Below, in pieces: positions 5,839-31,799 of a stretch of 32,000 nt of DNA. Source of the stretch: Candidatus Scalindua sp. (GTDB lineage Bacteria; Planctomycetota; Brocadiia; Brocadiales; Scalinduaceae); the NCBI GenBank assembly GCA_031316235.1, contig JALDRA010000001.1, forward strand, positions 780,001 through 812,000, in the 5' to 3' direction. The translations under genes were made by a program, and so were the position numbers. The notes beneath the pieces were generated by a model. The model ran no database searches and was not told the DNA's origin. It saw only the letters and a list, made by a program, of their open reading frames with translations. Each line of letters opens with the position of its first letter. Within the stretch, counting starts at the first letter, position 1.

Positions 5839-6107
5839 GTTTTACAACAAATATAATGTGTCCCGGCAGAGCCAGATGAAAATGCTACAAATGCATCTGG
5901 AGATTGACACAAAGATAAAATTCCAGGCAGTGTCTTCCATAAACAGGAAGATAGATGCTGAATCGGTTCCAAGGAAACCTTCCGAAGTGTGAGATTGAAA
6001 AAGAAGCCTTTTGGAGTTGCGACCGAAGTTACTCTTGGGTTAAAGAGACAAACAGGCAGGCCTACACACAAATTAAAACCACTCAATTTACACCGTTCGT
6101 GTATATA

Positions 6108-6199
6108 TACTCATCTCATACTGGATTTCGGATAAAATCCGAGATAAAATGGAGCGAGTACAAGTCCTCGGCGCTTTTTGTCCGGGGATACCTTCACCA
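6108..6199 (+). repeat. Hairpin repeat family A, long copy
   Basis: TACTCATCTCATACTGGATTTCGGATAAAATCCGAGATAAAATGGAGCGAGTA...TACCTTCACCA matches 31461-31524, apart from a 28-bp internal segment found only here and a few substitutions. The core hairpin is TCGGAT-AAA-ATCCGA. Confidence 0.75.
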
Positions 6200-23371: not shown

Positions 23372-23461
23372 GATGATAGGATGATGAAAGGAATTTGCTT
23401 TTTTGAGATTCTGCGATTTTAGATAAAATGTTAATTAAACACAAGTGCTTTTTGGGTGTTA
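23372..23461. repeat. Cassette-junction direct repeat R1 (~90 bp, with an 11-bp internal insertion at 23380-23390)
   Basis: It aligns base-for-base with R2 and R4 from GATGATAGG through ...GGGTGTTA. The exceptions are an imperfect tandem duplication (GATGATGAAAG) and one T/C difference. Similarity decays after 23461. Confidence 0.9.
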
Positions 23462-23870
23462 TGTCCTGTATTGATCTACTTTGTTATAAAAGTGGATGAA
23501 AAAGAGAAAATATGGAGATTTGAATATAAGTAACGGTGTTTTTGTGATGACTTGTCAAAAAGTATACATACCTCTCCTGGGATTCCTGCATTATGGCAAA
23601 TTTTCAAGAGAGAAGGTATTACGGATTCTATATTGCTATCTGGTATCTCTACGATATAATCAACTTTTATGGTTGCCTGCATAAGAGTTCCTTTTTTTAA
23701 GTTTCTGGATACTCGTATCTTAAAGTGAACTCACCTGTTTTGTAACCTTTTATTCTTTGAGTCTCCCAATTGTTACGCTGTTAGAAAATTTATACTTGTA
23801 TTACGGATAAGAAGTTAAGAGAACAAATTAATATATAAACATAGATACTACATTTGAAGGAGTGATTTAT

Positions 23871-24587: not shown

Positions 24588-24676
24588 TAAATTGTGAAGT
24601 GGGCCCCATTTCATATTTACACTATATGAGGCCATTTCCTGATTTGAAGGGGTTGTTGTGTTTCAGATTAGGGTTT

Positions 24677-25375
24677 TCAAGCCGGTACATCAATCATGAT
24701 GAATTCAGAAGAATCAGTCGCCACGATTTCAAGGGATAATTCATTTTTAATTCTGGCTTGATCACGCGTTTCGATTATAGCGTTGTTTACTTCTGCTTTG
24801 CCTTTAATCATGTAGATAAAGGGATTTCTGTTTTCATCGAATTCAAGGTCAAGCCGTTTTCCTTTTTCAAGGACTGCTCTGTAAATGGATGCTTCTGTGT
24901 TCAGAGAGACAATGCCTTCACCAGGTGTATCCGATGCTAAAAGTTTAATTTTGTTCTGCCATAAATCCGGTTTAAATCCTTTCTGAGCATAGGAAGGTTC
25001 AAGCCCCCTTTTATCTGGATTGATCCAGATCTGAAAAAAATAAACCGGTTTATCGCTCAGGTTTCGTTCCGAATGATAGAGTCCGGTTCCGGCTGTCATG
25101 CGCTGGACATCATTTTTCCTTATAGTGGTTGTATTACCCATGGTATCTTCATGAACCATTTCACCATCAAGGACAATGGATATAATCTCCATTTCCTCAT
25201 GGGGATGAGTATCAAATCCTTTTTGTGCTTTAACAATATCATCATTAAACACGCGCAGTCTTCCATGGGAAATGTTTTCAGGATCATGATAGTTGCTGAA
25301 CGAAAACAACCAATATGTTTGAAGCCAACCAAAGTCATTGAAGTGCCTATCATTTGATTTTACGATTTGTATCAT
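24677..25375 (-). CDS. Pirin-family cupin (YhhW/quercetinase-like)
   Basis: FDTHPHEEMEIISIVLDGEMVHED and MTAGTGLYHSE are the two pirin cupin metal-binding motifs. The 232 aa length fits. Confidence 0.85.
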   Translation of the reverse strand: MIQIVKSNDRHFNDFGWLQTYWLFSFSNYHDPENISHGRLRVFNDDIVKAQKGFDTHPHEEMEIISIVLDGEMVHEDTMGNTTTIRKNDVQRMTAGTGLYHSERNLSDKPVYFFQIWINPDKRGLEPSYAQKGFKPDLWQNKIKLLASDTPGEGIVSLNTEASIYRAVLEKGKRLDLEFDENRNPFIYMIKGKAEVNNAIIETRDQARIKNELSLEIVATDSSEFIMIDVPA

Positions 25376-25500
25376 GTCGATATTCCTTTCATTAATGTTT
25401 AAGATAAATCAACTGTTTTCAAGTCCGAGCTTTTTTAACAATTCGCCGAGCTGTGTTTGCTCGTCAGTATCCTGTACTGAAAAAAACAGAGTCTGCAATT

Positions 25501-25655
25501 GATGATAGGAATTTGCTTTTTTGAGATTCTGCGATTTTAGATAAAATGTTAATAAAACACAAGTGCTTTCTGGGTGTTACGCCCGGCAAAGGGAAGGCGA
25601 CCTTGATTGTTACCAAGGGCATAATGGGGGTCGATAACCGTCACGGCCAAACTCA
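25501..25655. repeat. Cassette-junction direct repeat R2 (long form, ~155 bp; right side cut by a group II intron)
   Basis: It matches R4 over its whole length, with about six differences and without the hairpin-element insertion. The match ends at ...AAACTCA, where intron domain VI-like sequence begins. Confidence 0.9.
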
Positions 25656-26262
25656 ATCTGGTAGGAAGCGGCCTAAAGGTCGCCCCCTCCCAACAGAACG
25701 GATCGTACCGGCCAGGTAAGCCGCTCCTCGATTAGTGACCAAAATAAAATTTGAGATTCCGCTCCGTGAAACTGTCTAATGAAATTAGACCCTTTTGTCT
25801 GAACCACTTCAAGCTTAGAACAAAACGGACTTGCGGTCTTGTTACAGATTGCCATTTTGACATCTTTACCCATGTCTTCTTGGCTTCCACCGCTTTGTAT
25901 CCCGCTCGGTACATCATCCTTTGGAATTTCCCGGGCTTCTTCCACTTCTTTAGCTGCATTGATCGTAGTCTACTCCTGGTAAACTCGTCTAATTGTCGAA
26001 ATATCTGCTTTAATTCCTGTACTCGAAAGTAGCCAACCCAGCCCTGCAAGTAGTCAGTTAATTCTTGAATAATCTGATGCATGGACAAGGGGTTGTTGCG
26101 CTTACTCATTTCCCGTACTTTATTCTTAAAGATATTTACTGCCTTTGTGCTAATTCGTATCTTACCCCTGAGTATCTGAAAACCCAAAAATGTAGCCCGT
26201 TTTGTCTCTATTACGTCACTTCTCTCTCTATTGACTCGTAGCTCTAACTCATCCTTTAACTC
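25656..26262 (-). mobile_element. Group II intron remnant: 3' ~600 nt (RT/maturase C-terminus plus domains V-VI), 5'-truncated
   Basis: The minus-strand ORF encodes the maturase/X-domain pattern (LTDYLQGWVGYFR...). Downstream, GAGCGGCTTACCTGGCCGGTACGATCCGTTC (25726-25696) folds as a domain V with the AGC triad, a 2-nt CG bulge and the closing GAGC../..GTTC helix. It is followed by a domain VI-like helix (GGAGGGGGCGACC/GGCCGCTTCC) and ...CTACCAGAT. Confidence 0.8.
25732..26262 (-). pseudogene. Group II intron reverse transcriptase/maturase, C-terminal fragment only
   Basis: The in-frame reading extends upstream of the track ORF (ELKDELELRVNRERSDVIETKRATFLGFQILRGKIRIS...), which is RT domain 7 followed by the X domain. 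It is cut off near 26262 by unrelated sequence, so RT domains 0-6 are absent. Confidence 0.8.
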
Positions 26263-26358
26263 ACGCTAGCATCAAAAGAAGCCGGTTTTATCACCGGTCA
26301 AACCATAATCATTGATGGGGGGCAGATTCTGCCCGAATCGCCTGAAGCGCTGCTCTAA
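26263..26358 (+). pseudogene. Short-chain dehydrogenase/reductase, C-terminal 31-aa fragment
   Basis: My own translation gives TLASKEAGFITGQTIIIDGGQILPESPEALL*, the typical SDR C-terminus (..ITGQ.I.VDGG..). No upstream part exists. The fragment is flanked by TCACGCT on both sides (26261-26267 and 26360-26366). Confidence 0.7.
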
Positions 26359-26575: not shown

Positions 26576-27090
26576 ATGGTAGAAGTCGGATATTTAAGGG
26601 TTAGCCCTGTCGGTCAGGCTACATACCGGTAGCTTACCGATATTAACCAGGATAAAACATTTACTGACAAAATATCCGGAGCATCTTTCAATAGGCCTGA
26701 GATGCAAGCCTGTTTCGAATATCTGCGGGAAGGTGACAGGCTCCATGTCCATTCGATGGACCAGTTGGCCTGAAATCTTGCAGATCTCCAAAGGATAGTT
26801 GAGAATCTCAACGCCCAGGGCATTGTCGTGAAATTTCACAAAGAGGGTCTGGAGTTCATCGGGGAGGATTCCCCTATGGCCCGATTGCTCATGCAAATGA
26901 TGGGAGCCGTTGCCGAATTTGAACGATCCTTGATCCGTGAACGGCAGGCCGAAGGTATAAAAAAACTCGGGAGAGAGGCGTAATGTTCAGCATGAAATTT
27001 AAACTCAATGATTCTCAGAAACGGGAGATCATCGCCCTGGTGGATGCTGGTCAGACAAAAAAGGCTGTGGCTGTCATGTTTACGATCGTA
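26576..27090 (+). pseudogene. Serine recombinase (resolvase/invertase) pseudogene
   Basis: MVEVGYLRVSPVGQATYR*... continues in frame as ...LHVHSMDQLA*NLADLQRIVENLNAQGIVVKF...EFERSLIRERQAEGI. It has in-frame TAG (26630-26632) and TGA stops where family members have Q/R codons. A frameshift precedes the HTH part (KLNDSQKREIIALVDAGQTKK). Confidence 0.8.
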
Positions 27091-27260: not shown

Positions 27261-27389
27261 TTAAGAAAAATGTGATCCAAGAAAATTGCCATGATCCTGA
27301 TCATCACTGAAAATATTGCGCCGCCCGGTTCTGTGGGCGATGATATGATGCAGAGCACCGGGAGCATCAATTCTGGATTGGCGTGGCAT
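27261..27389 (-). pseudogene. IS200-like/RayT-like Y1 (HUH) transposase, N-terminal 42-codon fragment
   Basis: My own translation gives MPRQSRIDAPGALHHIIAHRTGRRNIFSDDQDHGNFLGSHFS*. The pattern MPR..R...PG..HH...R...R..IF.DD.D...FL matches the N-terminus of REP-associated/IS200-like tyrosine transposases. It is prematurely terminated. Confidence 0.6.
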
Positions 27390-27499
27390 CGTGGCATAAA
27401 TGTTCATTATAAGGTCGATGATCGTCTGTAAAGTTTAAAGAATGAGAGCGTCCTTCATCTTCCCGGGCCGATGATTCCAAAGCCCATTTCGTATCCTGT

Positions 27500-30259: not shown

Positions 30260-30299
30260 GATGATAGGAATTTGCTTTTTTGAGATTCTGCGATTTTAG
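30260..30299. repeat. Cassette-junction direct repeat R3 (short form, the 40-bp core only)
   Basis: GATGATAGGAATTTGCTTTTTTGAGATTCTGCGATTTTAG is identical to the first 40 bp of R2 and R4. Unrelated sequence lies on both sides. Confidence 0.9.
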
Positions 30300-30327: not shown

Positions 30328-31323
30328 TTAATTTCTCATTGCTCTTAACTGTGCTGATTGTCTTAGTTTATCTATATTATATTTTTTATATAATTCACTT
30401 GTACTGTAAGCATATTTAATAGTATGAACATTTGTTGAATTAGAGCTGTCTCTAATTATATTATCCCAGGATTTGTTTTCTCCTAAATCCATTGGAACAC
30501 CTTCATTATCTGCTGTTAAAAGATGTGTAATAATATAAGTTGTCATAATATCTAATATATATGAAAAGTTATTAAAATAATCTTCTAATACTAATAAAGC
30601 TTGGAGCCCTGTTATACAGTGGAGTACTAGTATACTGTCTGTCTCATCTAATATAGGCAGTAGTAATTCTAATAAATTAACCACCTTCTCCTCGTTGCTT
30701 CCATCAATTAACAATCCCATTTCCATATATTTGCTGTCATTGTAAAGAGCATGTAACTTTTTACCACGAGATGGGTTGGATTTTAATAATTCAATAATTT
30801 CTCCATTATTAAATACCTTTTCTATACTTTCCAAAAACCGGGAAGGATTTACCTTTTTGTTAAATACACTTCCCTCTCTATAAGCTGTTATATAATAAGC
30901 CAAAGCTCTGGCTACTTCCTCTTCTAGATCTTGATCTAATTTCATACCTTCAACTGCATAGGCTAATCTAATAGTAGTGTGAAATAATCCTGATGATATA
31001 CCAAGAGGATAACTGTTTAATACTTCTGCAATAACTTTTTCTACACCTTTTAATTGAATTTCTTTTTCTATAAGTAATAGACAAGCTTCATACAAATCTC
31101 TTTTCCCTACACATTCAGTTATAGTTTCTACTGGACTAAATTCAACTTTTATCTTGTCTATTCTTCCCGATTTTATATAGCTTTCAGAATATGATGCTAT
31201 TTTTTCTACATCATTTCCCATCATATATAATGCCAATTGACCCATAGGCAAATGATTTACTAGGTCACTTGCATATGGTGAAAAGGTCCTAGCATATTGA
31301 TTTACAACTTCTGAAATTTTCAT
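30328..31323 (-). CDS. DUF4243/questin-oxidase-like protein (tentative)
   Basis: A 331-aa ORF with a GGAGGGAG RBS upstream. The N-terminal pattern ...NHLPMGQLALY... and HTTIRLAYAVEG resemble the questin oxidase-like family as I recall it. It is extremely AT-rich: hand counts give 10/60 G+C on line 30541-30600 and 14/60 on line 31021-31080. Confidence 0.5.
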   Translation of the reverse strand: MKISEVVNQYARTFSPYASDLVNHLPMGQLALYMMGNDVEKIASYSESYIKSGRIDKIKVEFSPVETITECVGKRDLYEACLLLIEKEIQLKGVEKVIAEVLNSYPLGISSGLFHTTIRLAYAVEGMKLDQDLEEEVARALAYYITAYREGSVFNKKVNPSRFLESIEKVFNNGEIIELLKSNPSRGKKLHALYNDSKYMEMGLLIDGSNEEKVVNLLELLLPILDETDSILVLHCITGLQALLVLEDYFNNFSYILDIMTTYIITHLLTADNEGVPMDLGENKSWDNIIRDSSNSTNVHTIKYAYSTSELYKKYNIDKLRQSAQLRAMRN

Positions 31324-31381
31324 AAATACTCCCTCCGATTAGATGAGAGATGATAGGAATTTGCTTTTTTGAGATTCTGCG

Positions 31382-31410
31382 ATTTTAGATAAAATGTTAA
31401 TTAAACACAA
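31382..31410 (-). promoter_or_regulatory. Putative sigma70-type promoter inside the repeat (minus strand): TTGTGT-17 nt-TAAAAT
   Basis: On the minus strand the -35-like TTGTGT is at plus coordinates 31410-31405. A 17-nt spacer separates it from the -10-like TAAAAT at 31387-31382. The same elements occur in R1 and R2. R3 keeps only the -10 and the downstream 34 nt. This rests on a motif match only. Confidence 0.3.
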
Positions 31411-31460
31411 GTGCTTTCTGGGTGTTACGCCCGGCAAAGGGAAGGCGGCCTTGATTGTTA

Positions 31461-31524
31461 TACTCATCTCATAATGGTTTTCGGATAAAATCCGAGATAA
31501 AATTGAGCGGGTATACCTTCACCA
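31461..31524 (+). mobile_element. Hairpin repeat family A, short copy inserted into R4 (MITE/REP-like)
   Basis: It is present in R4 between ...CCTTGATTGTTA and CCAGGGC, which are contiguous in R2. It matches 6108-6199 except for the 28-bp internal block. Confidence 0.75.
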
Positions 31525-31563
31525 GGGCATAATGGAGATCGATAACCGTCACGGCGAAACTCA

Positions 31564-31799
31564 GTATTGATGGCTCGACGGGGTCAGCCAGTGGAAGAAC
31601 AGAGATAAACGCCTTTGATTGGCCCGTAGTGAAAACATTGACCTCATAGTAGCATAGTAGTCGGTACCCCCATGGAAGCACGGGACTTGGCACATGTAGT
31701 GCTTGCTGGGAACACACAGCAACGCAGGTTGTGCGCAAAGCCTGGATTCCGGTGTTGACGGTACCCGTTCGCACACAAATTTGCGGTGGCTGTACGGGA
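31564..31799 (-). ncRNA. Candidate structured non-coding RNA or structured rtcB 3' UTR (unclassified)
   Basis: There is no credible ORF here; the two track ORFs look like nonsense. Nested hairpins are dense on the minus strand: CCCGT..ACGGG enclosing CGCA..TGCG just after the rtcB stop; GCGCA-CAACC-TGCGT; AAGCAC..GTGCTT flanked by CCC..GGG; and TGGCT-GAC-GGG-GTC-AGCCA at 31571-31590. I recognise no known RNA family. Confidence 0.3.

Follow-up and report, generated by a model that had tools for sequence, protein, structure and literature searches.

We describe a group II intron relic in a 32,000-nucleotide stretch of Candidatus Scalindua sp. DNA (the window), in which positions 25656-26262 of the minus strand hold the 3'-terminal ~29% of an intron, some 607 of ~2,100 nt, made up of an RT7/maturase ORF remnant, domain V and domain VI. 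The intron end reads ...CCAGAT|TGAGTTT, where the 3' exon is the second of four copies of an upstream repeat, R, starting with TGAGTTT at 25655 (R2, 25501-25655, minus strand). A reading made from the letters alone (the sequence-only reading) had proposed a 5'-truncated group II intron within R2, and the genuine nature of the fragment is confirmed by a Pfam GIIM match (E 1e-18), by Rfam RF00029 (27.1 bits) and by homology to a full-length relative (L002). That reading took the 5' two-thirds to be missing; the truncation stands, with its extent corrected to ~71%. We consider it likely that a class C (IIC) intron inserted just downstream of a hairpin in a long form of R and that a later deletion took its 5' ~71%. 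The left end of the relic, at ~26262, is a break inside the ORF that is joined to gene debris, and not an intron boundary. Judged from what is left, the relic is incapable of splicing or moving and is decaying.

The extent of the relic is read from the full-length relative, whose DNA homology by blastn covers 26255-25660 at 68% identity, together with the intron size of 2,040-2,174 nt in the full-length relatives. The relic is without D1-D3 and RT domains 0-6. A complete ribozyme (5' GUGYG, domains I-III) is absent from the window, in which no Rfam D1-D4 family, nor any other Rfam family, reaches its gathering threshold; the full-length relatives, compared over D1-D4, score 59-70 bits on RF02001. 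No second intron copy was found in the window. Furthermore, among 5.8 billion proteins, the window's own product aside, no RT exceeds 73% identity to the ORF remnant, and hence no live master copy is known.

The maturase ORF, correctly ended at 25732 by the sequence-only reading, remains open for 177 codons from 26262 to a TAA stop at 25732-25734 (minus strand). Its translation (25732-26262, minus strand) comprises RT domain 7, the X/maturase (thumb) domain and a C-terminal tail, which ends soon after the X domain and holds no endonuclease domain. The NCBIfam model TIGR04416 is matched over model positions 238-353 of 353 with 63 bits, below its cutoff of 300 because the ORF is a fragment. Against the PDB, the remnant is nearest to the GsI-IIC RT (1.6e-16) and the E.r. 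IIC RT (1.1e-11), followed by the IIB TeI4h (4e-4); the complete RT of a full-length relative gives the same order at its head, with GsI-IIC at 1.8e-86, E.r. IIC at 1.1e-72, LtrA at 1.9e-38 and TeI4h at 3.3e-23.

Six bases 3' of the ORF stop begins a 71-nt stretch that forms the last two domains of the intron. Domain V (25696-25726, minus strand) has an AGC triad, a 9-bp basal stem, an AC bulge, a 3-bp distal stem and a 5-nt loop, and domain VI (25660-25691, minus strand) has a bulged branch-point A at 25662, the intron 3' end being 25656. RF00029 matches 25656-25728 (minus strand) with an E value of 0.0056 in a relaxed scan, and its 27.1 bits lie under the gathering score of 40; this is no ground for doubt, because the same sequence, nearly base for base, terminates the full-length introns of metagenomic relatives. 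The covariance-model and folding check that had been suggested for these domains bears them out. In an alignment of 21 sequences, the window copy and 20 distinct relatives, the consensus fold has 25 pairs, eight of them with compensatory changes, and the bulged A of the expected domain VI helix lies 7 nt from the 3' end, as in group II introns. For domain V the position and the AGC triad given by the sequence-only reading hold, and its CG bulge is replaced by AC in the consensus fold. Two mismatches are private to the window copy: a C-U in domain V (pair 7-25 is CG in 17 sequences, UA in two, UG in one and CU in one) and an A-C in domain VI (pair 47-58, AC in this one sequence only).

The traits by which class C introns are recognised include a domain V distal stem 2 bp shorter than in IIA and IIB introns, CGC in place of AGC, an AGGAA bulge motif, IBS1 pairing of 3-4 bp, the absence of EBS2 and a stem-loop at the place of IBS2 (PMC1702495). 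The window copy and each of the 20 aligned relatives have a distal stem of 3 bp (ACC/GGU), and an AGGAAGC motif is found near position 126 in 71 of the 78 relatives. The triad of the window copy and the aligned relatives is AGC (GAGC) and not CGC, although the relatives were extracted with a pattern requiring GAGC, which CGC-type relatives would escape. Insertion downstream of stem-loops is, among group II introns, a specificity of class C alone (PMC4424553), and since the relatives insert after stem-loops this supports the class C reading. Taken with the RT, whose nearest solved structures are IIC, and with the short distal stem, these comparisons support assigning the relic to class C, as had been guessed, the RT having been placed by comparison with the solved GsI-IIC, E.r. 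IIC, LtrA and TeI4h structures.

The window copy having lost its 5' part, the target rule has to be read from the relatives. A scan of metagenome contigs with a 21-nt D1 motif common to three relatives gave 91 distinct 5' exons, and in 77 of them (~85%) a GC-rich hairpin, mostly of 7-11 bp, ends 6-9 nt upstream of the splice site. The segment from -34 to -5 has a median folding energy of -15.9 kcal/mol, against -2.5 for the window background. The 5' exon ends in T(-5) T(-4) N followed by A at -2 (93%) and C or T at -1 (97%), and the 3' exon opens with T in 25 of the 28 complete introns. Conservation in the exons is confined to about -5 to -1 and to +1, which fits short IBS1-EBS1 and IBS3-EBS3 pairings; EBS1 of the relatives was not located by covariation. 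From the survey a clean target rule emerges for a sediment-dwelling subgroup of IIC introns whose triad is AGC: a hairpin, a spacer of 6-9 nt and TTNAC|T.

The survey also shows where else these introns settle and what settles in them. Four of the 91 5' exons place the insertion directly after the domain VI hairpin of another copy; in these tandem insertions (L022, L036, L058 and L108) the 5' exon consists of the domain VI hairpin and 3' end (...CCTACCAGAT) of that other copy. A repeated intergenic element made of two hairpins (..AACCGCTTTGAGCGGTTCAC..AAGCCTCCGGCTNTGCCGGAGGT..) recurs across many metagenome contigs and is favoured by the intron's relatives as a target: many of them sit behind its second hairpin (5' exons of L026, L029, L030, L037, L044, L079, L091, L105, L112, L116 and L132). 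Other group II introns are nested within the RT ORF of relatives L003-L005 (at about 2300-2900, with RF02003 matches), and further relatives (L018/L019, L017) are interrupted, with a large serine-recombinase element inside the intron at two loci and a DDE transposase in another.

The question of what the intron entered at R2 turns on the fourth copy of the repeat, R4 (31349-31563, minus strand), the unoccupied paralogue. The sequence-only reading aligned R2 and R4 as far as 25655 and 31563, and the homology indeed stops exactly there, at the intron 3' end: beyond the boundary R2 goes on as ...CCTACCAGAT, the end of the intron, and R4 as ...CCATCAATAC. Upstream of T31563, R4 presents a putative unoccupied target (31564-31590, minus strand), proposed on folding energy, match to the relatives' profile and the joint frequency of these with a T at +1, which consists of a spacer TCAATAC (31564-31570) and, exactly where the earlier reading had placed it, a hairpin of 8 bp with one bulge (31571-31590; TGGCTGAC-CCC-GTC(G)AGCCA). 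The order of elements, hairpin, 7-nt spacer and AC|T (ATAC/T), is that of the relatives. The hairpin, at -8.7 kcal/mol, is in the top 3.4% of window positions, yet weaker than ~90% of real targets. The PWM match of positions -8 to -1 to the relatives' profile (1.78) is in the top 5% of window positions, and 20% of real sites are no better. Counting against a target, R4 has A,A at -5 and -4, and the relatives mostly carry T,T there.

Taken jointly, a hairpin, a -8 to -1 match and a T at +1 as good as or better than those of R4 occur at 26 of 63,916 window positions (0.04%), the R4 site among them; another is found directly behind domain VI of the relic itself. Since so few positions equal all three, the R4 boundary is target-like beyond chance, and from its sequence the R4 position equivalent to the intron 3' end looks like an unoccupied target, albeit a poor one by the standard of this intron group. 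The likeness of R2 and R4 might instead end at 25655 and 31563 for reasons that have nothing to do with the intron, the R4 flank never having been a target. The weakness of the hairpin speaks for such a coincidence, as do the facts that only two copies reach the boundary and that the region downstream of rtcB is not conserved in relatives, but the rarity of equally good positions in the window makes it very unlikely. The suggestion that the intron targeted the repeat holds in part: the R4 site is target-like, whereas repeated targeting finds no support in a single insertion without pattern. Just two copies, R2 and R4, reach the junction, and the R2 insertion has lost its 5' exon; for the former reason, an extension of the repeat past the junction in R2, hairpin included, is something that we infer and do not see.

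Other readings of the spacer between rtcB and R4 were tried and set aside. As a structured RNA it has a fold z of -0.39, a chance Rfam match only and no tRNAs, and as a gene it offers a junction-spanning 101-aa ORF of implausible sequence without Pfam match. The regions downstream of rtcB in relatives, examined for the R4 hairpin, are not conserved; RtcB 'proteins' of 69 and 101 aa in this comparison are partial gene calls at contig edges.

The repeat itself has an unusual construction. R1 (23383-23494, minus strand) lies upstream of the mrp operon, and R3, which consists of the 40-nt core only (30260-30299, minus strand), lies upstream of an aldehyde dehydrogenase gene; together with R2 and R4, the four copies sit upstream of unrelated genes or operons. 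Three copies have the same core, from which the fourth departs slightly (98% identity); all four share one end point (...CCTATCATC), while upstream they reach to different, nested extents. Between R2 and R4 the likeness covers 112 nt (98%) and then another 40 nt (93%), the two blocks being split in R4 by a 55-nt insert (31459-31513) that is absent from R2; this insert, probably a small MITE, has terminal inverted repeats TATAC...GTATA and a 93% twin ~25 kb off at 6106-6160. On the minus strand a pair of similar 8-mers, spaced 16 nt apart, lies in the core (GCAGAATC-N8-GCAAATTC) and might be a regulator-binding site common to the mrp, pirin, aldehyde dehydrogenase and questin-oxidase-like genes. 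A sigma-70 consensus scan of R lists no promoter; a putative -35 TTGTGT and -10 TAAAAT can be read there.

Outside the window, a scan of genome contigs with a 22-mer of the core found a Desulfobulbus MAG and one Flavobacterium match, the latter taken as chance. In the Desulfobulbus sp. MAG (JAVEYP010000229.1, our L013) the core and 19 further nt stand at 1148-1209, upstream of an orthologue of the gene at 30328-31323, across which MAG and window are 91.9% identical; the long form of R and the linkage to rtcB are absent. No copies of R were found in viral and plasmid sequences. By its distribution R behaves as a fixed-ended upstream module grafted before unrelated genes, and possibly it is a promoter-leader. 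That its copies, with a common 3' end, nested 5' ends and R2 running into the intron, should be 5'-truncated retro-copies of one RNA made of intron and 3' exon is unlikely.

The neighbourhood of the relic is rich in broken genes. As the sequence-only reading had it, the broken intron end adjoins a fragment of a short-chain dehydrogenase gene; this fragment is C-terminal and lies on the opposite strand (~30 codons; 26265-26358, plus strand; PF13561 positions 215-234 of 236, E 5e-4). On the other side, a marR gene is reduced to its last ~30 codons (25409-25500, minus strand), the cut falling precisely where R2 has its fixed end. In relatives whose pirin is 83-91% identical, the pirin gene stands in a marR-pirin-nitroreductase operon with marR intact, and the homology of the window to these marR-pirin loci covers 24655-25500 and stops exactly at the R2 end; all pirin orthologue loci examined are without R, and so supply no empty R2 site. 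Mobile-element debris lies between the relic and an amidohydrolase gene: a fragment of a resolvase (serine recombinase) gene occupies 26828-26983 (plus strand; PF00239, E 3.6e-9). A short ORF at 27261-27407 (minus strand), without Pfam match, resembles the N-terminus of an IS200/RAYT-type transposase.

These surroundings bear on how the intron lost its 5' part. Abortive reverse transcription with joining of the cDNA end occurs with non-LTR retroelements. The R2 copy could likewise have been truncated at birth, reverse transcription having aborted in the ORF and the cDNA end having been joined to nearby DNA, in which case no full-length intron ever stood at R2. That the break falls within the ORF, at a junction where no second element can be recognised, would suit this, as would the still open reading frame, which, being uninterrupted over its 177 remaining codons, suggests that the break is not very old. 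Birth truncation should, however, have left the 5' exon, hairpin and spacer, beside the truncated end, and what is found there is a truncated dehydrogenase fragment on the other strand; moreover, the other broken genes nearby indicate that deletions are common in this neighbourhood. We thus regard truncation at birth as unlikely, while the two routes are indistinguishable from this sequence alone.

In the preferred history, of insertion followed by deletion, an endonuclease-less class C intron would have reverse-spliced into a long R upstream element and been reverse-transcribed there. It would have entered 7 nt beyond a hairpin and co-oriented with the flanking genes, much as class C introns usually settle behind terminator-like stem-loops, and the paralogous unoccupied site would persist in R4 (31564|31563). 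A later illegitimate deletion or rearrangement would have removed the 5' ~71% of the intron (D1-D3 and RT0-6) along with the R2 hairpin and the upstream flank, and in the same event would have joined the remainder to the dehydrogenase gene fragment within the gene debris. What is left, the RT7-X ORF, domain V and domain VI, would since have decayed with neither splicing nor mobility. We infer the order, insertion and then deletion. The long form of R would once have borne the hairpin, its neighbourhood would have been reshuffled by illegitimate recombination, and the relic would be a scar of both.

The sequence-only reading went further, and saw in an intron at the junction repeat of a gene array a parallel to integron attC sites and to the formation of cassettes. 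This parallel finds no support. XerD is the sole tyrosine recombinase of the window: it scores 356.8 bits on its equivalog model (cutoff 329.6) and, far short of the cutoff of 265, 126.6 on the integron integrase model TIGR02249. R lies 5' of genes and is not an imperfect palindrome; an attC-like reading of R2 was rejected, for on neither strand does it fold beyond shuffled sequence (z about 0). IIC-attC introns insert into the bottom strand of attC, opposite to cassette transcription, at TTGT/T (PMC7923331), whereas the relic is, as had been noted, co-oriented with the genes, and its target-like site in R4 is ATAC/T. With XerD only, no attC fold, co-orientation, ATAC/T, a single insertion and a left break internal to the intron, the integron parallel is unsupported, and we find no evidence that the intron helped to build the array.

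A related proposal deserves to be weighed by itself. In the model of Leon and Roy, homologous recombination between two intron copies would have put a foreign flank on R2 and so built the array. The model is published for IIC-attC introns (PMC7923331), the homology of R2 and R4 begins exactly at the intron 3' boundary, and R is clearly grafted before unrelated genes, which speaks in its favour. However, the left junction lies within the intron, away from its 5' boundary, the window has no second intron copy and the protein collection no close RT, R1 and R3 carry no traces of an intron, there is neither an integron integrase nor an attC-like fold in R, and orientation and target consensus differ from those of IIC-attC introns; such shuffling is thus highly improbable here. 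We think it distinctly unlikely, too, that R is a self-spreading junction module, of hairpin and promoter-leader with one fixed end, moved with the help of hairpin-homing class C introns. If it were, the introns would give the R module portable homology or reverse-transcription intermediates, the replacement of marR by R upstream of pirin would be one such graft, and the whole would parallel intron-assisted cassette formation, with no integrase involved.

Among genomic fossils, truncated class C introns behind hairpins are a known and common kind, and the relic itself is ordinary; the R repeat beside it is the less ordinary feature. With its 40-nt core, its fixed end and its graft onto a truncated marR-pirin segment, R may repay more study. 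The relic resembles class C introns, such as B.h.I1 of Bacillus halodurans (PMC1702495, PMC4424553), in an RT/maturase without endonuclease whose nearest solved relatives are IIC RTs, in a domain V distal stem 2 bp short and in its orientation, which is that of the upstream gene; its relatives add the AGGAA motif (PMC1702495), insertion 6-9 nt after a hairpin, a short conserved 5'-exon end with a single conserved 3'-exon base, and tandem insertion of intron after intron. Unlike B.h.I1, it has AGC and not CGC as its triad and only the last ~29% of the intron is present, and unlike the terminators that class C introns target, the presumed R4 hairpin is weak and bulged with no T run after it.

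With IIC-attC introns the relic shares its class and a position between genes of an array whose junctions hold a repeated sequence, here with the intron also 5'-truncated. It differs from them in being co-oriented with the genes and in its ATAC/T site, and its setting differs in that R has no attC fold, lies 5' of genes and is accompanied by no integron integrase.

The repeat has a counterpart of its own. Matus-Garcia, Nijveen and van Passel reportedly described, in 2012, putative mobile promoters, which are identical upstream segments before unrelated genes. R departs from these in its sharply fixed end and nested upstream extents, and its own promoter activity is putative; like them, it has a core that is nearly invariant before four unrelated genes or operons, and upstream of pirin it has replaced the native marR.
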